A DNA stretch of 64,000 nucleotides from Rhizodiscina lignyota (taxonomy: Eukaryota). The position numbers and the translations under genes were made by a program. Under the pieces are notes generated by a model, which did no database searches, had not been told where the DNA came from, and worked only from the letters and a program-made list of their open reading frames with translations. Of this stretch, positions 4,537 through 42,785 are shown piece after piece (the first letter of the stretch is position 1; each line of letters starts with the position of its first letter). The stretch lies in NCBI GenBank assembly GCA_010015805.1, contig ML978122.1, forward strand, positions 3,072,453 to 3,136,452, written 5' to 3'.

Positions 4537-6156
4537 TCAAAACTTGGTGTCTGGTCCTGTTCGAATAATAGCTGTGGCACCAGCCATCACATCAGGATCA
4601 TTCAGAAGCTCCACAGCCATCTGAGCAAGTGCGCGGCCGACTTTCTCAGTTTCCCTAAACGCAAATTCTGTAGCAGCAAGCAATCTGAAACCGGGTTCAT
4701 GGTTAAGTGGACAGGGAGTGACCGTTCTGTTGTAATTACAAATGTTGAAGGTTGGATGTACGGTGGCTTTGGCGACGCTTTGAAGAGTGTAGTTCCCGCC
4801 TTGTTTGACCACATCCGCTCGTTGTACCCAGGATGTATCCCCAGCAGCGGGCGGTGTAGTGGAGAAGGGGAATGTTTGGTTTCCGTACTCAGGTAACGTC
4901 ATTGTGTCGATGAATAACGACCCAAGATACGGCTCGACTTCAACTGCCGGATATATGACATCCAGACTCCAGTTATTAGTTGGCAGCAGGCTAACCACGA
5001 TGTCTATGAGACTGTCCATGTCGAGAGTGTAGCGAGTACGAAGATCGATCGTAAAGTCGAGCTCAGTTGAAGTGGAATTGTCGGGCAGATAGAATTTGAG
5101 ATTGGGGTTTGAAGCGTTAAGTGTCCGAAACGAATCGACAGACAGAGTAAGAGATCCAAGGTTGTCTGTGGCAGTATGGCCGGAGTTCCCAACAAAGCTG
5201 ATTGCTACTCCACCCTTAATATTTGGATCATCCGTAACCGTAAAGTTGGTTTGCGCATAGCCCGCATTTGCGGCCTTGATAGCATTGATAGTGTTGTTCA
5301 CTACGGTGACATTCGCTCCTACAACTCCAAGTGCAATGTCGGCCTGGACAACATTGCAAACAAATAGCCCGACATCTTCAATCAGTGACACGGTCGAGAA
5401 GGAGCCAGGTAACGTCCCCGTCAAGCTCAAGTTTCTAAGCAACACAAGAGTATTGTAAACCTCCTTGACAGCTTCAAAGTGGGTCGCTCTCTTGATTCGG
5501 ACAACAACATTTTGTCGTGCTGACAGCGGTGGAACGGCGCTTGAGCTAGCCGGATGAGCCATCATCCAAATCTGACTATCTTCAAAGGCGCCGGCGAGGA
5601 AGAGATCATGTTTTCCACAACTCTCCTCCTCGTCTGGAGTGCCAACGACAACAATGCGGCCAGGGATGTTGTAATGGACTAAAGCTTCACGGGCGAGACT
5701 AGCAGCGTATACCCCAACGAGATGGATGAGGTTATGGCCGCAAGAATGGCCAATTCCTGCAAGAGCGTCGAATTCGCAAAGAAAGCCCACGGCGGGAAGA
5801 ATCTTGTTCCCCTTCCCATGCCAATGAGAGGGCTTGTGAGAGGACTCCAGCTTCCATGCTGTCGGGAGAGTTTCTAGAATATTCGGATACACGTTCCAGT
5901 CTCCAGGCGCTCTGTTTTGGAAGTAGTCAACGGTGATTGCGTGTGCAAAGGTCTCATTCCGACCAATCTCAGGATGGTGGTAGATCTGTTTAGATATCTC
6001 CCTGAGGTCAGGGTAGATTCGATGTTCCAAGCTTTGAAGATATTTTGGCAGTGTAGAGACATCTTCCGTAGGAATACCAAAGCTGGATCCGCTCAGAAGA
6101 GTGACTAATATCAAGCCAAACCAGGCGCATCTCCATTCAGTGTAGATACGCGCCAT
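4537..6156 (-). CDS. M20 family metallopeptidase/amidohydrolase (ACY1L2/PM20D2-like) with signal peptide
   Basis: 539-aa ORF; HPEIG..E, EFDAL..IGHSCGHNLI, GTPDEE, MMAHP and NHEPGF motifs; hydrophobic N-terminus. Confidence 0.88.
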   Translation of the reverse strand: MARIYTEWRCAWFGLILVTLLSGSSFGIPTEDVSTLPKYLQSLEHRIYPDLREISKQIYHHPEIGRNETFAHAITVDYFQNRAPGDWNVYPNILETLPTAWKLESSHKPSHWHGKGNKILPAVGFLCEFDALAGIGHSCGHNLIHLVGVYAASLAREALVHYNIPGRIVVVGTPDEEESCGKHDLFLAGAFEDSQIWMMAHPASSSAVPPLSARQNVVVRIKRATHFEAVKEVYNTLVLLRNLSLTGTLPGSFSTVSLIEDVGLFVCNVVQADIALGVVGANVTVVNNTINAIKAANAGYAQTNFTVTDDPNIKGGVAISFVGNSGHTATDNLGSLTLSVDSFRTLNASNPNLKFYLPDNSTSTELDFTIDLRTRYTLDMDSLIDIVVSLLPTNNWSLDVIYPAVEVEPYLGSLFIDTMTLPEYGNQTFPFSTTPPAAGDTSWVQRADVVKQGGNYTLQSVAKATVHPTFNICNYNRTVTPCPLNHEPGFRLLAATEFAFRETEKVGRALAQMAVELLNDPDVMAGATAIIRTGPDTKF

Positions 6157-6370
6157 TGCTTCCGGCAGTACGGTAAAGAGTGCCCGATAGCGAATTGAGG
6201 TGAAAGAGGATACTCAATTGGAGATCCGCATCGGTCTACGCGCATATTTGAAGGCCAACTCACCGGTTGATGGCTCGCTCTACTTTTTGAAGTATTGGTC
6301 ACGCAATAGAAGAGATCCATTAGGTGATAGGTTAAAATCATAAAGCAGGGGATACATTGTTGACCTAACG

Positions 6371-16870: not shown

Positions 16871-19282
16871 ATGGCTACAAAACAAGAAGACAAACCAGCA
16901 GCCTCGCCCGGCGTCCGCTTCAGCTCGCACGACGAAGAGATTGAGCCCACCGCGAGCTTGGAGCAGGTCGACACCATCACCGGCTCGGATAGGCGGGAGA
17001 GAGACGACATCGATCCTGAGGCTCAAGAGGAATTGAAGAACCTGACAATGACGCTGCAAAAGTCACGACAAAAGCAACGCGCTGAGAACTTTCATTTCGA
17101 GCCAGTTTCCCTTCCTGCTTCGAGGGTGAGTCATGCACATCGGCCTTGGCTCGGATTTTGTATTTGAAGCAGCTCGCTGAATGTTAAATCGCGCAGGTCC
17201 CGTCCAACTCCTCCGGCCAAACGCCAGCACACTCGAACAAAGCGTCTCCCAGGACCTCTCCGCCCGTCTCTGCCGCACACACACCCCCTCTCACTCCTGC
17301 TGCTTCCGGTGATCGTCCCTCCTCCTCCTACGTACAACAACATGATCGAAGATCTGTCACGGACGCTGGTCCGGTTACTCCACAAGACTCCCCACCAGCA
17401 AATGATAGTAGACCATCGGCTGCCGCTCAGGCGAGGATACCAAGAGGTGTCAGGCCAAGATCTATGGTAGACATGCCCGGACCAGTAGCAGCTCATCCAA
17501 AGCAAGGCCCTACTTTCACCCTTGGACCTGCTGGAGACTCTCTGCCTGGCTCACAAGAGGCAAGTCCTGCAGTCACTCCTGGCACGACAACTCCACCTGG
17601 TGTTGCTACTCCGGGCTCTCCGTTCAGTCGGCCGTTCACTCCTGCTGGCGATGCCAATGACCCATATGCTCGCGGCAAACGCCCACCGCAGGCAAAGAAT
17701 CTCGAAGGCATTGACCCTCGATTCGTCTTCACGGGAAGGGATCCTCGACGCAGCCATGTTTTCGGCAGCACCGGCTCATCTGCCTCGCTGCCTCGGTCTG
17801 CGGCTGGTAGCACTACCGACGTCAGCACCAAAGAGGACAAGCGGCGTTCTTTGTTCGGCGGCAATCACTCGGAACTCTCGGACCAGAAGCCGCACGGATC
17901 AATGTCTGAGCTCAAGCGCTTCTTCCGCCTCGGCGGCCATAAGAAGGACAAGGAGAAGCGAACTCGGTCGCCGGCACCTGCCTCGCGTACCGTGAGCAAG
18001 GCAGGCACCCGAACGCCGCCGTCGACCCCGGGTTCTGTCAGCCTTCCGTTTGCGGATGACCACGGCCTGCAGAGCAAATACGGCAAGTTTGGCAAGGTGC
18101 TTGGCTCTGGCGCTGGTGGTTCGGTGCGCCTCATGAAGAGGAGTAGTGATGGCGTCACGTTTGCTGTCAAGCAGTTCCGCGCTCGACACTCGTATGAGAC
18201 TGAGAAGGAGTACAGCAAGAAGGTCACTGCCGAGTTCTGTATCGGATCAACTCTCCATCATGGCAACATCATCGAGACCATGGATATCGTTCATGAGAAA
18301 GGCAGTTGGTATGAAGTCATGGAGTACGCACCATACGACCTGTTCGCAATCGTCATGACGGGCAAGATGTCGAGGGAAGAGGTTACATGCTGTACATTGC
18401 AGATCCTCAGTGGCGTGACGTATCTGCATGGCATGGGTCTAGCACATCGAGATCTGAAGCTCGACAACGTCGTCGTCAACGACCAGGGCATCATGAAGAT
18501 CATCGACTTTGGCAGCGCTGCTGTCTTCCGCTATCCCTTCGAGAATGAGCTTGTGCTCGCCAGTGGTATGTACGCTCTCTTCATTAGATACTGTTATTTC
18601 TAATATTCCTCTAGGTATCGTTGGTTCAGATCCCTACCTCGCCCCCGAAGTCTACGACCTCCCCAAATACGATCCTCAGCCAACCGACATCTGGTCCCTT
18701 GCCATCATCTTCTGCTGCATGACGCTTCGTCGCTTCCCTTGGAAAGCGCCTCGCCTCTCTGATAACTCCTACAAGCTCTTCGTTGCCGAGCCCGATGAAG
18801 ATACAAAGCGGCTCTCGGTCGCTTCCCGTGCTCCGCAGTCCGAACCAGCCTCACGTGCTACATCTGGCGACTCGGACTCCGGACATCACCACCATCATCA
18901 CCACCGACACTCCGACGATCAGACCCACAGCGCCTCCGCCCGGTCCGACCCAACGGTAGACAAGACCAATGGCGAGGCTAACGGCAACGCAAGTGCTGCT
19001 CGTCCCACCACCTCTGGCGGCAGCCAACAGCAACAACAACAGATCAAAGGCCCATGGCGCCTGCTCCGCCTTCTCCCTCGCGAGACGCGCCATATCATCG
19101 GCCGCATGCTCGAGATCGACCCGAAGAAACGCGCTACGCTCGACGAGATCCTCGCAGACAGGTGGGTTGCGAATAGTCTTGTCTGTCGTCAAGAAGAAGG
19201 AGGACAAGTCATCCGCGCGCCTGGACATGAGCATACGCTGGAGCCTGGATCGGGAGCCACACCCGCACCAAGTAAGAAGTAA
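16871..19282 (+). CDS. SAT4: HAL-family Ser/Thr kinase (Sat4/Hal4-like); exons 16871-17125, 17197-18565, 18615-19282
   Basis: [47 protein letters not shown] motifs; canonical introns keep frame. Confidence 0.92.
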
Positions 19283-32483: not shown

Positions 32484-33526
32484 TTTGAGCAAGGAATGGC
32501 GATGAAGAGATGCGGGAACGGAGTTTTCGAGCTATCAAGATGCCTCGTTGGCGTTCCCTTGCGCGCGCGAATCAGAGCAAGACAGCGCACCAGCTGCAGA
32601 ACACGCGATTGAGGCGTGATACGGCGCGGAAACGGCGCGAATAGAACGTTGCAAAACTTTCGAGGCGGTTGACAGGTGGCTCAGACGGCGAACGCGATGG
32701 AAATTGATGCAGGGAATGAGGTGAAAGTGATGGGGAGAGGTACTTGTGAGACGGGGGTCGATTGACGATGCTTGGCACGCTAGCACGGGAGAGGCTGGGC
32801 GAATCAAAGACCCCATAAATACCATTCTTCAGATGTGAGCGTCCCTACCATATCTGCTGCTGCTGCTGTTTTGACGATAATTGCATGAGACGGCAATTCA
32901 TGTGTGTGTTGTCTCCTTTTCCCGTGGTGGTTATGGCAATATACCGTCGAGTGAATACAGCTCATTGTCTCCTCAAGCGTAGCTTCTGCCACACATCAAC
33001 ACGCAGATATCCGGCAGTTCAAGTGGATGGGGGTACTCCTTTGATTTAGCAAATATGTATAAGGAGAATATTAGCTCTTTATGCATAGGTCCCTGCATTT
33101 CAAGTACAACATCCACCTGCATGACAGATTGGGCTGCCATTATACGACTACCCCTTTCTGCCGCCGGGCTGAGATCTATGTATGCATACCCTGCAGCCTC
33201 TCCACACCAAGAGATCAGGAACGACAGCTTTTTCTGATCGCTCCCTGATTAATTGCGGCATCAACCGCGGGTCCGAGATTTTGCACCTCTTCTGCATCGC
33301 TATTGGTTGAAGCTCATAAACCCAGATCCATGTCACGTGCCTCGTCTAGACCGACTGTGGCATTCTGAAACGGCTGGACCAAACAACCTTGAAAGTCCCT
33401 TAAGCATTGGGCATCAGCACACTCAAACAAAACTTACTGTGCTACCCTCACCACTTCCTCTCTCCAAAAGTTTTTGTTTCTGAGCCTGAGCGCCCTTAGA
33501 CCCTCTTCGGGAACACTCTAGCCGTC

Positions 33527-36434
33527 ATGTCAGACCAAGTTCACGACCACGAGCTGCAGCCTGAGGCTACTGAAGGCTTCAAGGTTGGCGAGAAGAAAAC
33601 CATCGACGAATATCAGAAGTTGGGTAAGCTTTAGATTTCATGTTCAATATTCCCGAGGCCATACCTGCCACCGCTGCATCATCGGACTACTGCCTTGGAT
33701 ACCACTGCCTTTGTGGATGACCCTCGATTATGCCTTCCAACGACGAAACACTGGACCAAAACAATGTCTTCTGGCCCTCAGGACTATGCATCCTCCACAC
33801 AAATTCCCGAGCTTCAACATCCCATACTCTCGCTCTTACCAATCATCTCAAATCGTGCGATATCTCTACACATATGCGATCGTTACTAGTTGCGATCGCT
33901 TTCATCTCATATCAAAATGTCGCTTGGCGTTCCCGGAAGAGTCCCCCCTATGCGAAAGCGAGACTGGTTCAGTCCAGCTGTCATTCCTCTCGCTATCAAG
34001 TTTTTCCCACATGCTTGCCGCAAGCTGCCTCACAAGATTTCCGAATGGCGCCGAGGGGACTCGCTGTTTGCACAGTTCTGGCGCCGAAGAGCTCAATCAA
34101 CATCCACATACTTGACCAACGAAGAAGATCCAACAATGTCCGGGGCTTTGTCACCAAGAGGGCGTAGGCCTAACCATGCTCTCCAAGCCGTCGAAGCCGT
34201 CAAAGCCAAAGTCCATAATCTCAAAGGAAGAAGACGTCTACCGGCCCGGGAAAGCAAACGCGGCCGTATTTTCGGAGCGTTCAAGATCAAAACAAAACGC
34301 AAGAAAACTCGGCCACCGCTTGATGGCTACGAGCAGGAGCAGGAGGCAATACAACCATCTCCTCCCGAAAGTCTAAAAGGGTCGGCTGTCTGTCCTTGCA
34401 ACCCCAGACGTTTTCCTCGACTTCGAGACAGCAGTGATGACGACAGTGACGTTGGCGATGTGCACACTTTGCAACTGGACAGCCATTGGTCTGTTTCAAC
34501 AAAGTCACAGAAGCAAATGACAAGATTACTTCCAACAATCACTTTCCAGGGCAGGCCTATATTCAGGAATCCATTTTCGCCGTCGGAAATCCTTCCAGAG
34601 GGCCGAATTGCTGTGGACAAGCAAAAATGCGACGGAACAACAAATGTAAAATTAGTCCAACCTCGTGAGCCGGACAGTGGGATAGGGTCGACCACCAAAC
34701 TTGTCCAATTTGAGCATCCGCCGGAGACCAGCCCTCAACTGGATCATCAACTGCCCGAACGGATGTCGCCTGTGTCTCAAAATATTGCTCGGGACACCTT
34801 ACGACGCCGCATCCGACAGGATTTCCATGAGTCGGTGGTTTTTATCAGGGGAGCAGGTATGCTAACATATTTCTTTCATGTCAGATGCAAATGATGAGTC
34901 CCTTCGTAAATGGAAGGAGTCTCTTGGCATTGGCTCTGGCACTAGTGTTTCTGACCCGAATGATGCGCGCAAGGTCGTCATCTTAAGTCTAGGCTTAGAG
35001 GTGAGCACTTCATCCATTTCAACTTCTTGTCCGACTGCAGAATGCTAAGTCAACCCAGGTCGAAGGCCGTCCCGACATCATAATCGACCTGAAGCAGCCG
35101 GGAGCGGTCGACAAGCTGAAGGACCAACCGTTCACGATCAAGGAAGGATCGACGTTCAGGATGAAGGCTATCTTCAGAGTTCAACACCAGGTTCTCTCGG
35201 GCCTGAAGTACCTTCAGGTGGCAAAGAGGATGGGGATGAGCGACAAGATGCAGGAGATGATCGTAAGTTTCGCATTGATTCATATATTTGAGCAGCACGA
35301 CAGTGCCCCTCCATGGACTTCTGCCCACACTTTTCGCTCATTGCACTCTTTCATCGATCCCCGGAGACATGCTATTGCCATATCCGTTTACGTTACGCAA
35401 AGACGGCCGCGAGCTAGGGTATGTGCTGACGCTATCACAGGGAAGCTACAGTCCGAACACCACGGACAAGCCAACTTACGAGAAGAAGTGTCAGTAATCT
35501 CCTCTTCTTCTGCTGTTAAATCTACATGCTCTTCTTTTTCGTTTATTCCCACGCCGCCCGAAGGACTGCATACCAGGAAATTTCGGCCCACGTTCCGCGA
35601 GCACGAGCCCAATGTCGACGAAGGCCGCATTAACAAGATTGGCGTCCTCTTCGCCGAGGCCAATTTTATTCTGAATGGCTTGCGTCGGACTAATCCCAAT
35701 AGTCCAAATAGTGAGTATGCGGCGCCCCATCAACCGAACGGATTTCAGCGTGGATATTCAGGATTGCATCCGTGCAACTGCCCTGTGACGCCTGGATGTC
35801 TACAACTGCCGCAGGCTCAGCCATTCAACCTCCCTATTGCGGATGGCATGCAACATACGCCTGATCCAGCGTTCTATCAGCATCCACATGCTTCACTGGT
35901 ACCTGGCGTTACTGCACCTAATGGCTGGCATCCTCCACCGGCTCCACCGTTCTACCCGCCTCCATATCCCTGGCCGACTGGATACGCCCCTGGTCCCGCG
36001 TTCTACCCGCCACCATACGTCTGGCCATATGGGTGCCCCCGTGTGATGTACGGTGCGCAACACCCACTTGCCCAGGCGTTCCACCAGCCTCCTCATGGGA
36101 CGACCGGCTACCATCCCCCTCCGATCAATGGCGCTCCACACCTGGATTCCCCGCCGCTGAACACGCAGTCCCCACTCTCCCGTAATGGACATGACTACTA
36201 CGAAGATGATGTTTACAGTGATGAGGATGGATTGTTTGTGTTTTCTATCTGCATCGCAATATGGTATTGAGCCTTGAATCGCTGACATCTGTTTTTGTTA
36301 CAGTCGAACCCCAGACCGCCCCGACCGGAATGATTGCTCGTGGCCACTATAACGCGGTTTCCAAGTTCGTCGACGACGACAACGAGACGCATCTCAAGTT
36401 CGAGTGGAGCTTCGACATCAAGAAAGACTGGTAA
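33527..36434 (+). CDS. RDI1: Rho GDP-dissociation inhibitor; exons 33527-33623, 34885-34999, 35059-35262, 35441-35489, 36304-36434
   Basis: Spliced product MSDQ...TEGFKVGEKKTIDEYQKLDANDESLRKWKESLG...FTIKEG...LSGLKYLQ...MIGSYSPNT...APTGMIARGHY...FVDDD..HLKFEWSFDIKKDW*; all introns GT-AG with branch points. Confidence 0.95.
33890..34894 (+). other. Long same-strand ORF nested in Rho-GDI intron 1 (334 codons; first ATGs at 33917 and 34136)
   Basis: Stop-free for ~1 kb within intron 33624-34884; basic and acidic low-complexity blocks; stop overlaps exon 2 in another frame. Confidence 0.5.
35263..36270 (+). other. Open frame continuing from Rho-GDI exon 3 across intron 3, exon 4 (alternative frame) and most of intron 4; Pro/Tyr-rich
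   Basis: ORF 35161-36270 shares the exon-3 frame; contains repeated FYPPPY motifs and an acidic end DYYEDDVYSDEDG. Confidence 0.5.
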
Positions 36435-36835
36435 TGTACTTTGCGACACACGTAAACGAGACTCTTGAGGATGGCAGGCGCACGGAGAGGTTGTTTAGGG
36501 AGCGGCTAGAGATCGACGTGCCTTTCACTTTTCATCTGTTTGCGAACCCGAGCCTGCATGGAGCTAGCATTTGCAGCGGTTTGCAATTGCAATTGCAATT
36601 AGCATGAGATTGATATTTTCAAGTCTGTCTTTAGCCCTCTAGAAAATTCTGAATTACACGTCATTTCAGATACACGGCATAATTCATCGGGAAGTCACTC
36701 TCATCAACCGTAATAGAAAGTCCAAGCCAGGTATACGAAGCAATAGGAGATCCATCTTATGTTGCCCAAGCCAGGGATATCGAGCTGAAACGTCGTCATG
36801 TGGTAGTGATATGCGACGCGGACCAATGTCTCTCT

Positions 36836-38504
36836 TCACAAAGAGAGATATCCGAACGACACTGTCTGGCGCGGCTTGGATTGTTCGATGGTGTCGCTGA
36901 GTTTCCAGAACGCGGTTGGTCCGCATGGACCTTGGTCGTCATAGTCCCTAATCAAGAGCTTAGCGAGAACGCACAAAGGACAGATGCATTTGGGTTGGGA
37001 ATGAAGACATACTTATCAAACCACGTTCCAATGACACCACGGCTAGAACGCAAGCCGCCGACCTGGATGCCTTCGCTCTTCCATCGTTCCTCACTGCAGG
37101 AATTGTCAATGCTGCCGTTTCGCACCTCAACAGGAGACTTACCCATGGAACACGGAAATCGTCGTCCACCGGACTTCTCCCTCGGGTGTAAGTCTGACGG
37201 TGCCTTTGAAGACTACTTAGCCTCTCTTTCAGCCTGCTGCCTCCGCTCAACAAAATAAATGAATCACTTACCCCTGATAGCCGAATTGGCGTTCGGGTCC
37301 CAGCTCGGATGCATCGAGTGCGAGGACCCTCTGAAATGTACGACAGGCAGAGCAGGGTTGTCATTCGGTCCTGGTGCCTCGATTTTTGTGGGGTACAGCT
37401 TCATGGTGATGAGACGGATTGCTTCTTCCCGGTGGATCGGGTCCCGGGGTTCTGCGCGCGGGATGTCGGTGCTAAAGTTGAAGAGGTAGAAGTCATTGTA
37501 GTCGAGGAAGCAGACTACCCTTCTCCACGTTCCATGAATGTTATAAGGATCAACTTGCTGCAGATCCAATCCCGGCTCCTTCACCAAATTCATTCCGTCT
37601 CCTCTCCACTTCGCAGCCTCCATGCGGTCTCCTGTCATCCCCGCAAACGGTGTGTCCCAGACAATATCTACACCGTGATGTTCGCTGAAGTGCCGCATGT
37701 TATGTCCCAGCACCACCATGATCGCCTCCACTTTCTCCCAATCGACTATCAGCCCTCCACCCCACTCCTCGCCTGACTCGTCGAGGAAAGGCCCCCAAAG
37801 GTTGTTGTCGGTATAACCGCGGATGTCGTACACAACTGATCGCGCATAAGGGAAGGTCGGCGAGTTGCAACTTCTGCTGACATTGTCGATCTTGGTGCCG
37901 TAGAGGGAGTGCAGTTTTGCGGAGAATTGGCGCTCCTCTTTCGTGAGCTGTGACGTCGATTCTGTCGCGCGGATGAAGAGTGTGGAGCGCGAGAGGAAGG
38001 AATCCTTATTCCGTGGTTCCTGAAAACGGGAATGTAGGAATTGGACGTTTCGTGAGACATGTGGATCTGGATTGGCCGTCGCGAGTAGAGAAGACGTGGC
38101 AGACGTGACGAAGGAGATATGCGCTTGCTGTCTCATGTTCAGAATGTTGTTCTATGCCATCAATCGGTCAGCGGGAAGTCTAGACATACTTTTGTCTCGT
38201 CGTCGGACGTTTCAAGCAGCTTCTGCAGCTTCACGACCTCCTTCAGCCTTTCGATGTAGTGCGGGTCACCATCTGGTGAGCCAGCAGCGGGATCATCCTG
38301 TGTTGGTAAGCCAAAAGAGATATACGCTCGGAGGGCCTGGTTTACAAGGTGTTGTAGGTAAAGCTCCTTGAAGAGCAGCCGATTACTCGTCACATAGCTT
38401 TGTAGCGTCTTGCATGTTGCGGAGATAGCGGCGAGATCAGCGGGTTCGACCTGGATGAAGATGTGGTGGAGGATCTCATGAGCGAGTTCTAGGAGGGACG
38501 CCAT
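36836..38504 (-). CDS. F-box domain protein (multi-exon)
   Basis: N-terminal LLELAHEILHHIF..VEPADLAAISATCKTL F-box; conserved fungal C-terminus [42 protein letters not shown]. Confidence 0.87.
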
Positions 38505-40091: not shown

Positions 40092-42173
40092 TTACAGAGT
40101 TGCCATCCAATTCTCTCTCTGGAGGACCTGATCATACCTCTGCCTCACGTGTGCAGCCGACCGAATGTCCTCATTCCTCGAGAACCTTTGGCTTTCCGGG
40201 ACCTCTTCATTGGTAGCAATGATGTACCTGTAGCCCGCCAGGAACAGATAGATCAGGTCAGAGCCAGCATGGCCGGCAATAACATGATTGATCAACTCGA
40301 CAGCCTTGGTATAGAAATCCAAGATGGCGAGCCGACTGTTCTTAGCCGTAAAGTCGAAGTTGGGGTTGACTTCCAAGTGCAGCGCATGCGCCCAAGCGCT
40401 GAGGATAGTGTGGATGCTAGACGACGCCTCGGCCGTCTGCACCTCAATCTCTTCATTGGATTTGGCTTTGAATTTCTTTTCACGAACCTTCATGCTTTCA
40501 GTGTCTCTCTGCGCCGGACTGGGAACGTATCGCATCTTCATGAAGTTGACCGAGGGGCTATGGTGGTGAGCTTGGCCGGAGTACCAGCATAAGCTTTCCA
40601 CGATGGTCTTGACATGGTCTTCCACGTCATCTTGAGCTACACCTTCACGTAAGAGCTCAGGAGCGCTGTCGTACACGTCTATGCGAGGCATTCCAGCAGT
40701 GTTGGGCTCCGGCGGGCCTCCAACCATGGGCGGAACGTGAACCACGAAGAGGATCCAGTGCGGTCGTTGATCTTCGGAGTTATCAGTGTCCTTCGCTGAT
40801 GCTGAGCTAGCTTCTGAGGGCTCATTATCTGCAGACTCTCCTTCAGAGCCCTTGAGCTCTGTTTCCCCCTCAGATCCTTTGCTGCTTGCTTCCTTGGAGG
40901 CTCCTTTCACCTTCTTGGGGGTGGCAGGGGGCTTCTCCATGCTGAACGGCAGACGAGGTCCTGCCTTTTCTTGAGCTTTCTTCGCATCCTCCTTCTCCTC
41001 TTTCGGGTAGTTGTAGACGTACGGGAAATAGAACACGCGTCGCGGCCGACCTACCCTTTGCGGCGAGTCCACTCCGCGCACCCACTTATTCAAATTCTCC
41101 CCGTCAATAATGCTAAATTGGCATCCACGAACGGGGTCGCTGTCATATCTAATGGACTCCGTTACGGCAGCGATGGCGGTGATGATCTCCTCCCTGAATA
41201 GGCCTTCGTTAGAAATGTTGAGCCCCTCTGGCTCAGAGTCATCACTGGAGTCGTCGCTGCTGTCAGGGTCAGACTCTTCGCCGTCCTCCTCCTTCTTCTC
41301 CGCCTCCTTGCGGACCTTCTCATTCAACGCCTGCATTCGCTTGGTGTACGTGCTCTTCAACGAGCTCGGATTTGGTGGAGCATTCTTGTCCTTCTTCTTG
41401 CTCTTCTTCGGAGTCGGGTTCGCATCCGTCTCCTTCTGTGACCTCTTCCTCTTCTTACCTGATTGCTCCTCAGAATCATCCGCTGGAGCGGGCGCAGCAT
41501 CCTTTATCTTAGTCGGCATATTATCCCCCGGCTTTGTCGGTCCTTTCAAAGTTGTCGGAGTCGGCATAGATGCTACACCACCTGCTGAAACAGGCTTAGC
41601 AGGCGTCTTTGTCGGCTGTGATACATAAGAGGCAGCGCCTGGGTCCGAACCAGGCTTCTTCGTTGCCGGCGCCGGCATATTAAACTTGAACCCGGAAGAT
41701 GCTACACCTTCCGTTGAAGGAAGTTTAGCAGGCGTCCTCGTCGGGTTTGGCACATCAGAGGCTGGGCTTGGGTCTGAAGTAGGTTCCTTCGCTGGAGTAA
41801 TGGGAGTAGAGGTAGCTGGTGCCGTCGCAGACGCGACCATATCTAAATAAGGCATTAGTTCAAGCTTCCGCGAAGCCCAATAATGGACGTTCGGAAAGGA
41901 CAAATTCAACGCTAAAGATTCCGCATCCTCGACGTCCTTTGCCGTTCTGGCTTGGAAAGGAGAGTCAGACTTACCTTGTTTGGCCCCTTCTCCCTCCGCC
42001 TCTGAATGAACACTGGTGTGGACACTGATAACGTCCGAATCATATTCGTCTGCCTTGTCCATCTCTGTCTTCTGGCGTTTATCTAACACACTGTCGATGC
42101 TTCTACCATTTGCATCTGAATGAGTGCGCTTCCGCTTTCCTGCCGGGGTGTTGATTGGGGTGAATGAGCTCAT
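40092..42173 (-). CDS. Ulp1/C48-like pseudo-protease paralog with long disordered N-terminus (frame open to 42539)
   Basis: PHWILFVVH, VYDSAP, AQ...ASSSIHTILSAWAHALHLEVNPNF; aligns by eye with the 1015-2601 protein but has Ser at the catalytic Cys position. Confidence 0.75.
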   Translation of the reverse strand: MSSFTPINTPAGKRKRTHSDANGRSIDSVLDKRQKTEMDKADEYDSDVISVHTSVHSEAEGEGAKQGKSDSPFQARTAKDVEDAESLALNLSFPNVHYWASRKLELMPYLDMVASATAPATSTPITPAKEPTSDPSPASDVPNPTRTPAKLPSTEGVASSGFKFNMPAPATKKPGSDPGAASYVSQPTKTPAKPVSAGGVASMPTPTTLKGPTKPGDNMPTKIKDAAPAPADDSEEQSGKKRKRSQKETDANPTPKKSKKKDKNAPPNPSSLKSTYTKRMQALNEKVRKEAEKKEEDGEESDPDSSDDSSDDSEPEGLNISNEGLFREEIITAIAAVTESIRYDSDPVRGCQFSIIDGENLNKWVRGVDSPQRVGRPRRVFYFPYVYNYPKEEKEDAKKAQEKAGPRLPFSMEKPPATPKKVKGASKEASSKGSEGETELKGSEGESADNEPSEASSASAKDTDNSEDQRPHWILFVVHVPPMVGGPPEPNTAGMPRIDVYDSAPELLREGVAQDDVEDHVKTIVESLCWYSGQAHHHSPSVNFMKMRYVPSPAQRDTESMKVREKKFKAKSNEEIEVQTAEASSSIHTILSAWAHALHLEVNPNFDFTAKNSRLAILDFYTKAVELINHVIAGHAGSDLIYLFLAGYRYIIATNEEVPESQRFSRNEDIRSAAHVRQRYDQVLQRENWMATL
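41570..41795 (-). repeat. Internal tandem duplication (~43-aa period) in the Ulp1-like protein
   Basis: KEPTSDPSPASDVPNPTRTPAKLPSTEGVAS vs KKPGSDPGAASYVSQPTKTPAKPVSAGGVAS. Confidence 0.7.
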
Positions 42174-42540
42174 TGTTAGTGGGATATTATCAGTAAGTGT
42201 ATAGATGTGTGGGGAAATGCGTCCTCCTATGTTTGTCAACTGTGCAGAAGTCAGTTGGTAAGAATGCGGGTCTAAGATCGCAGCAAGACTTTGAAACTGA
42301 TTGTTTTCTGTCCCTTGGAAGGTGTTGCTTGTTTCTTCGCCTGATCCGCTGGTGTCGTTGGGTGAGCTGAATAGAAACCGTTGATACCTATACATATAAT
42401 CCGTGAGATGTATAAGAAAAAAGGAAATAACGTAAAACTTAATACCACAACAGTTTGTCGATGTTGAAAAAGTACTCGTCTGGTGCGAGCAGGCGCACGC
42501 GTTTTGAACCAGCGGCGGCATTGAATGTCCTGGAGCCATG

Positions 42541-42785
42541 GAACAAAGGTTCGTGAGTTATTGACGCCTGTCGTCCTTTGAGTTCTCAAAAATTCTTCAA
42601 GGACAATTGTCCCGTCCACTTGAGAACAAGACGCTTGGAGGGCCATTGTCCTCGACTCACAAACACGAACAAAGAATTAACTCCAGTCGGCCGCCAAGAC
42701 AATGGACCATCGTCTGGAATATCAACGAAACCACAGCCCCGCAATTATTCTAGTCAGCGCGGGAGGAATTAAAGAATTAATTGTC
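42541..42785. promoter_or_regulatory. Cluster of HMG-box-type motifs upstream of the second Ulp1-like gene
   Basis: GAACAAAG 42541, ACAATTGT 42603, CATTGT 42644, GAACAAAGAA 42667, ACAATG 42699, ATTGT 42780. Confidence 0.45.

Follow-up and report, generated by a model that had tools for sequence, protein, structure and literature searches.

Open reading frames in two enlarged introns of a fungal Rho-GDI gene: candidate nested coding sequences

Introns in Pezizomycotina are mostly shorter than about 100 nucleotides (nt), and normally measure only tens of bases; it is therefore unusual for a conserved housekeeping gene to hold coding frames within its introns. What, then, occupies the two very long introns of a small Rho-GDI gene in Rhizodiscina lignyota? 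The gene lies in a 64,000-nt stretch of contig ML978122.1 (positions 3,072,453 to 3,136,452; hereafter the window, to whose numbering all positions refer). A first-pass annotation had noticed that its introns 1 and 4 are largely filled by long stop-free frames on the sense strand, here called open reading frame 1 (ORF1) and ORF2, and had proposed a locus with more than one product, whose extra products could tune Rho/Cdc42/Rac sequestration. The answer we favour, tentatively and at somewhat short of even confidence, is that both long introns of an otherwise normal Rho-GDI gene harbour nested coding sequences specific to this lineage.

The host gene and its two open introns

Spliced by its coordinates, the host is an intact five-exon Rho-GDI gene of the RDI1 type, whose coding sequence (CDS) of 597 nt encodes 198 amino acids (aa), with GT..AG at every intron and intron lengths of 1261, 58, 178 and 814 nt (Table 1). 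The CDS of about 600 nt spread over 2.9 kb and the coordinates of the two long introns had thus been annotated exactly. Exons 3 and 5 reach 62.1 and 61.7 bits against Pfam Rho_GDI (PF02115), for which the curated cut-off is 26.5. The spliced product aligns with a 198-aa Rho-GDI of the protein collection (P0027) without any gap, 177 of 198 residues being identical, and with the Rho-GDIs of three Dothideomycetes (Patellaria atrata, Lepidopterella palustris and Zopfia rhizophila) at 155–158 of 198, with a single one-residue gap at the N-terminus; because these alignments are gap-free or nearly so, we take all four junctions to be right and the host to be a Dothideomycete-like ascomycete, with which a HET-domain gene found in another part of the window agrees. 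The window's own Rho-GDI protein is absent from the collection, in which the highest exon-3 identity is 85% (P0027 and P0028). From its family membership, the product is predicted to bind and extract prenylated Rho GTPases.

Introns 1 and 4 had been described as more than ten times the 50–80 nt typical of the window. The comparison that supports their disproportion covers the gene's own introns 2 and 3, introns 2–4 of 44 other Rho-GDI loci (47–131 nt) and two Pkinase ORF pieces of the window, which overlap at 18497–18600.

The openness of both introns is hard to attribute to chance. None of 2000 dinucleotide-preserving shuffles of intron 1 contained a sense frame as long as the observed one (331 codons inside the intron, against a shuffle maximum of 300), and only 4 of 2000 shuffles of intron 4 equalled its 259-aa frame. 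On the antisense strands, 30/300 and 22/300 shuffles, respectively, were as open, which is unremarkable. The depletion of stops is, moreover, frame-specific: the three frames contain 0, 7 and 10 stops across ORF1, for which shuffles predict about 9.5 per frame, and 0, 5 and 13 across ORF2, for which they predict about 7.9. Three bona fide window genes display the same shape (0, 18 and 32; 0, 11 and 40; 0, 9 and 19). Because both regions are somewhat stop-poor overall (17 stops in total against 28.5 expected for ORF1, and 18 against 23.6 for ORF2), such frames are less rare than the naive (61/64)^n estimate would suggest. Roughly, each frame has a chance probability of about one in a thousand, and both occur within one gene, which upholds the earlier judgement that two such frames are unlikely as neutral intron DNA. 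The openness of intron 3, in contrast, is non-significant (454/2000 shuffles as open), and its coding score is negative.

Codon structure was scored with a three-periodic second-order Markov model trained on 16.4 kb of window ORFs (nine Pfam-supported ORFs plus three others longer than 550 codons). Read in frame and left out one at a time, the twelve real window genes score between -0.02 and 0.23 bits/codon, and three shadow frames opposite real genes between -0.05 and -0.19. ORF2 reaches 0.129 bits/codon, a value attained by none of 881 chance frames, which are the longest open stretches in shuffles of intron 4 and average -0.080 +/- 0.057. It forms the last 259 codons of a 421-codon frame (35005–36270) that begins with the true frame of exon 3, passes through intron 3 and crosses exon 4 shifted by one base; along this frame, the score is negative over intron 3 and exon 4 and turns positive from about 35500, and it stays positive outside the proline-rich duplication. 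ORF2 looks like coding sequence on two independent criteria, and ORF1 by its length only.

Other identities for the intron DNA found no support in the searches made. The region 33000–37000 yielded neither an Rfam match at E <= 1 nor a tRNA, and the introns thus lack the known RNA family expected of a host of snoRNA or other non-coding RNA. Of the marks of an introner-like element or a transposon-derived intron, terminal inverted or direct repeats are missing from the intron ends, and the intron DNA has no second copy within the 64-kb window.

ORF1 and exon 1 are in one frame but are separated by two stops: downstream of exon 1, this frame closes just past the donor (..QKLGKL, then a stop), is open for 84 codons as far as a stop at 33887–33889, and is then open for 334 codons (33890–34894), that is, 79% of the intron. 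The ATG of ORF1 stands in the context atcaaaATGtc, with A at -3, and its product, in which R, P and S are abundant, is basic (isoelectric point (pI) 10.5) and without a Pfam family or a usable Atlas neighbour. ORF2 stops 33 nt short of the intron 4 acceptor. Its product is 18% proline, with three PPxY motifs, which are motifs that bind WW domains, and a short hydrophobic tail. Tandem Repeats Finder (TRF) detected no array in ORF2 beyond the single duplication of 2 x 51 nt, in which 6 of the 14 changes fall at third positions (a hand count, on a stretch too short for a test of synonymous against non-synonymous change). Neither ORF2 nor the whole 421-aa frame has a Pfam match except Rho_GDI in its exon part, and Atlas returned nothing for ORF2.

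Two further observations concern the surroundings of these frames. Just 5' of the ATG of ORF1, a 45-nt span (33857–33899) contains three GCGAT(C) motifs, which include the 8-bp palindrome GCGATCGC at 33892–33899; this group may be a cluster of factor-binding sites or a product of chance. In intron 4, a cassette exon at 35564–35710 was ruled out by a hand check, its junction with exon 4 creating a T/GA stop.

Table 1. Coordinates of the Rho-GDI gene and of the frames within its introns
Feature	Positions in the window	Strand	Remarks
Rho-GDI exon 1	33527..33623	+	Codons 1-32 plus 1 nt; phase-1 donor TTGG/GTAAGC; matches N-termini of annotated Rho-GDIs
Intron 1	33624..34884	+	1261 nt, GT..AG; CTAAC branch-point-like at 34862
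Rho-GDI exon 2	34885..35000	+	Splicing and alignment to known Rho-GDIs
Intron 2	35001..35058	+	58 nt
Rho-GDI exon 3	35059..35262	+	Pfam PF02115, E 7e-17
Intron 3	35263..35440	+	178 nt; open in the exon-3 frame, openness non-significant
Rho-GDI exon 4	35441..35489	+	Splicing and alignment to known Rho-GDIs
Intron 4	35490..36303	+	814 nt, GTCAGT..CAG; CTGAC branch-point-like at 36282
Rho-GDI exon 5, stop codon included	36304..36434	+	Pfam PF02115, E 1e-16
ORF1	33917..34894	+	ATG..TGA, 325 aa; frame open from 33890; ends 10 nt into exon 2
ORF2	35491..36270	+	259 codons plus stop within intron 4 (96% of the intron); frame open since 35005
Two tandem 51-nt (17-codon) units	35938..36039	+	73% identical; within the proline-rich part of ORF2

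The same introns in other Rho-GDI loci

When metagenome contigs were searched with exon 3, 45 Rho-GDI loci were recovered, 24 of which have exons 1 and 2 both resolved and were compared for intron 1, the other 21 being cut short, intronless or unresolved. The position and phase of intron 1 are identical in all 24, and its length ranges from 52 to 1591 nt. Five of these loci (L002, L005, L010, L013 and L014), all from Aureobasidium, possess a phase-1 intron 1 of 1566–1591 nt with a sense-strand ORF of 431–437 codons, and in each of the five no ORF as long arose in 1000 shuffles. Among the 18 distinct introns of at least 150 nt, the other 13 were non-significant (61–912 of 1000 shuffles as long), and the idea of an open intron 1 widespread among fungi was dropped. 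For intron 4, the same survey gave a different picture: of the 43 other loci in which both flanking exons are present, it measures 49–70 nt in 36 and is absent from the remaining 7. Because it is short or absent in all 43, the 814-nt intron 4 of the window gene is lineage-specific and without precedent. Long ORF-bearing introns at orthologous positions, which the first-pass annotation had suggested looking for, are thus found for intron 1, in five loci, and for intron 4 in none. The loci also vary in other respects: across L001–L044, introns 2, 3 and 4 differ in presence, introns 2 and 3 each being missing in many, and two entirely intronless loci (L012 and L037) are probably contigs derived from transcripts.

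The Aureobasidium frame could be followed in two loci, L002 (2445–3734) and L010 (2271–3551), assigned to this genus through 100% and 70% identity to named proteins; the nested ORFs recorded for them are 425–437 aa long. Their products (P0001 and P0002) are 70% identical, with a ratio of non-synonymous to synonymous substitution (dN/dS) of 0.11, which indicates purifying selection, and dS saturated at 1.7, and exon 3 of the surrounding Rho-GDI genes is identical at 67 of 68 positions. The protein collection contains 23 relatives of this ORF, all of them from Aureobasidium or unnamed. JGI models keep it separate, as a 'hypothetical protein' of 424–436 aa, whereas NCBI models fuse it to Rho-GDI as an 'E set domain-containing protein' of 557–644 aa. 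The fusion junction differs in nearly every NCBI model, at least six ways being represented, and the donor used in P0004 is missing in L010. Because of these inconsistent junctions and the missing donor, the fusions look like predictor artefacts and the ORF, judged from its sequence conservation, like a genuine nested coding unit. Pfam has no family for it, and a sequence search of the PDB gave no match; an AlphaFold2 model of the protein reached a mean predicted local distance difference test (pLDDT) score of 49, and Foldseek found nothing in the PDB at E <= 0.001. In both loci (L002:3727–3745 and L010:3544–3562), the TGA of the nested ORF lies inside a conserved donor-like motif, CGGTGAGCGGC, about 90 nt before the exon-2 acceptor; if splicing used this motif as its donor, translation of the frame would stop after four codons of exon 2, leaving Rho-GDI exons 2–5 as 3' untranslated region.

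The Aureobasidium unit resembles ORF1 in its host gene, intron position, phase and strand. Both fill about 80% of an intron longer than 1.2 kb, both begin at an ATG of their own a few hundred nt past the 5' splice site, and both products are hydrophilic, basic and arginine-rich. They differ in that the Aureobasidium ORF is conserved, has a partly ordered central region and ends about 90 nt before the acceptor, which ORF1 crosses by 10 nt; Aureobasidium also lacks the long intron 4 of the window gene.

The Trypetheliales, known here from protein models only, may add a third lineage, with an ORF either inside intron 1 or 5' of it. Two annotated long Rho-GDIs, P0120 from Trypethelium eluteriae (393 aa) and P0131 from Bathelium mastoideum (816 aa), are available as protein records only, and each carries an N-terminal extension that is kept between the two genera and joined exactly at the exon-2 acceptor. 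Like ORF1, these models have a basic, lineage-specific sequence directly upstream of exon 2, in their case rich in S, P and K. The ORF1, Aureobasidium and Trypetheliales sequences are all hydrophilic, and all of them save P0002 (pI 7.8) are strongly basic, with a pI of 9.5–10.5.

Proposed nested coding sequences and the rival explanations

Taken together, the frame-specific openness of the two introns, the codon structure of ORF2 and the nested ORF of Aureobasidium suggest the following picture, in which we infer both the translation of the window ORFs and their mode of transcription. In this Dothideomycete-like fungus, the conventionally spliced locus would yield the 198-aa inhibitor as its canonical product. 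Introns 1 and 4 would owe their size to lineage-specific DNA with coding sequence on the sense strand, either still active or active until recently, and this DNA would be spliced away from the Rho-GDI mRNA. ORF1 would be a self-contained, basic frame of 325 aa, probably disordered, and the positional counterpart of the Aureobasidium unit; six other ATGs precede its own between the 5' splice site and the start, and it would consequently need a transcript starting inside intron 1. ORF2 would be a young addition with gene-like codon structure. Because its first 119 codons contain no ATG, it (about 35500–36270) is more readily seen as an exon of a nested or alternative transcript, or as the remnant of one. 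The proposal of a multi-product locus thus gains a precedent, the conserved Aureobasidium ORF in the same intron, and finds no support as to isoforms made by simple intron retention, for the reason given below.

Several observations weigh against this picture. ORF1 scores -0.03 bits/codon, a value attained by 19% of chance frames, and its composition is similar to that of a random translation. A search of 5.8 billion protein clusters gave no homologue of it (of 1978 candidates that shared words with it, none reached E <= 0.001), and its 68 pattern matches in metagenome contigs included no confirmed one. The branch point and the 3' splice site of the host intron lie within ORF1, and splicing signals thus shape its end; this, too, counts against it, as do the upstream ATGs just mentioned. 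The first methionine of ORF2 is residue 120 (35848), and its sole match among 1.84 billion representatives, P0138 (E 3.8e-6), was rejected as spurious, resting on a motif of about 12 residues (ILNGL..TNPN) that recurs through the many repeat copies of a 1545-aa bacterial protein. Protein-language-model recognition scores are low for the two ORFs (1194 and 1039), 2300 being attained by 91% of known families. Finally, ORF1 shows no similarity to the Aureobasidium family detectable by blastp or hhalign and no significant similarity to the Trypetheliales extension (E 0.046 pairwise; none by hhalign). Profile comparison likewise shows no relation between the Aureobasidium family and the Trypetheliales pair, and the window's intron DNA and ORF peptides had no match in the 45 Rho-GDI loci. 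The missing similarity would nevertheless be compatible with common descent, since the nested ORF is only 70% identical even within Aureobasidium, where Rho-GDI exon 3 is 98.5% identical; between the window and Aureobasidium, exon 3 itself is 78% identical.

Much of this would be expected if the frames were non-functional DNA that is spliced out and yields no product, either inserted coding fragments that have yet to acquire stops or sequence kept open by its composition. We regard this as the most substantial rival, doubtful on balance though far from negligible. It accommodates the lack of homologues for both frames, their low Atlas recognition, the chance-like codon structure of ORF1 and the long startless beginning of ORF2; all three sense frames are jointly open over about 33721–34115, which implies that the region is generally stop-poor, and the content of intron 4 must be young, given the state of this intron in all 43 other loci. 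What it explains poorly is the rarity of the frame lengths in shuffles (0/2000 and 4/2000) at two places in one gene, the restriction of stop depletion to one frame and the codon structure of ORF2, unmatched by any chance frame; a fragment of a conserved gene, moreover, should have matched its parent in the protein searches. A different possibility, which we consider improbable, is that ORF1 is an alternative first exon: from a promoter in intron 1, most of ORF1 would be spliced to exon 2, and a basic extension would replace residues 1–32 of the inhibitor. Database models of this form exist, fusing an upstream ORF to the exon-2 acceptor (..QNDESLRKW), in Aureobasidium (P0004, P0008, P0011, P0013, P0016 and P0020) and in the Trypetheliales (P0120 and P0131), where the extension is kept between two genera. 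Both consensus donor-like GTs in ORF1 (34665, GTGAGC; 34857, GTATGC) are also in phase 1, as is the acceptor at 34885. The Aureobasidium junctions, however, are inconsistent in the manner of predictor artefacts; the site at 34857 lies just 28 nt from the acceptor, and the score of that at 34665 falls short of the 10th percentile of 86 real donors. (The matrix of splice sites, derived from 86 real Rho-GDI introns, is weak for acceptors; the true exon-2 acceptor failed it, and alternative-exon scans made with it carry no weight here.) From what is known of Rho-GDI structure, such an isoform would also lose part of the N-terminal regulatory arm.

Two further rivals seem highly unlikely. ORF1 and ORF2 could be two exons of one same-strand gene interleaved with Rho-GDI, a splice to about 35564 skipping exons 2–4. 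This arrangement would explain the missing ATG of ORF2, whose coding signal begins near 35500–35560, and the phase-1 donor-like sites of ORF1 are, by a hand check of phase, frame-compatible with ORF2 through the AG at 35562–35563, which follows a long pyrimidine tract. Yet such compatibility arises by chance in one case out of three, the acceptor reads AAG, has no consensus branch point and failed the weak acceptor matrix, the coding scores of the two frames differ, and no precedent was found. Intron-retention isoforms, or autoregulation linked to nonsense-mediated decay (NMD), could likewise exploit the open frames, in that the ORF2 frame runs on from exon 3 by way of intron 3 and the frame-shifted exon 4; this, too, has very little probability in our estimation. 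Retention of intron 1 leads to a stop after 3 codons (..QKLGKL), and retention of intron 4 to a stop after 2 (..KKCQ). A link from exon 3 to ORF2 would require that the transcript keep intron 3 as well as intron 4, the coding scores of the bridge being negative and the openness of intron 3 of no significance, and judging by profile positions, a protein cut at residue 139 would lose about 30% of the Rho_GDI domain.

A broader and more speculative extension of the nested-gene reading, to which we assign a low probability, is that Rho-GDI intron 1 could be a recurrent host site for lineage-specific protein-coding ORFs in Dothideomycetes: this fungus, Aureobasidium and the Trypetheliales would each harbour a basic and fast-evolving sense ORF of its own just 5' of exon 2. 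These ORFs might descend from one ancient nested gene that diverged beyond recognition, or from repeated births of new genes in a long, constantly transcribed first intron; a second unit in intron 4 would then have been added, possibly spliced to the first and interleaved with Rho-GDI.

Elsewhere in the window, three ORFs of 558–821 codons on the minus strand (1015–2703, 4537–6213 and 40092–42557) belong to no Pfam family, but their coding scores resemble those of genes; each is probably a gene that is specific to the lineage or poorly characterised.

Significance and relation to known systems

Should either frame be expressed, this would be a compact fungal example of genes nested, or even interleaved, on one strand, and a candidate site of new-gene birth within a transcribed intron; if the frames are inert, it is a Rho-GDI gene with two oddly long introns. 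In either case, the fusion of an apparently real nested ORF to its host in at least six ways in Aureobasidium indicates that Rho-GDI models in these fungi need curation.

Mammalian RhoGDI-3 has an N-terminal targeting extension and illustrates that an additional N-terminal segment need not prevent a Rho-GDI core from working, which makes it a model for the alternative-first-exon isoform; its extension differs in being short and in belonging to a separate paralogue instead of deriving from an intronic ORF. Among fungi, the Tuber borchii gene Tbgdi has coding-region introns of 145, 109, 65, 69 and 57 bp (PMC2362126). Like the window gene, it is a Rho-GDI gene with several spliceosomal introns, of which the first is the longest; unlike it, Tbgdi has no long intron, and no intronic ORF is reported for it (PMC2362126). 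The portions of the literature that could be consulted contained neither a nested gene in a fungal nuclear genome nor an ORF in Rho-GDI introns.

A further comparison is with the nested protein-coding genes described mainly in animals, in which a coding frame likewise lies inside a host intron. The present case differs from them in that the fungal introns concerned are normally about 50–130 nt long, both frames are on the host strand, and the frames are known from sequence alone. As for a complete ORF within the intron, ORF1 has an ATG there but crosses the 3' splice site of its host, its stop lying 10 nt inside exon 2, and ORF2 has its stop within intron 4 but no ATG before 35848. On this comparison, the locus would be a still unproven addition to the known class of intron-nested ORFs, within which the Aureobasidium unit, at the same position of the same host gene, appears to be the firmer member.

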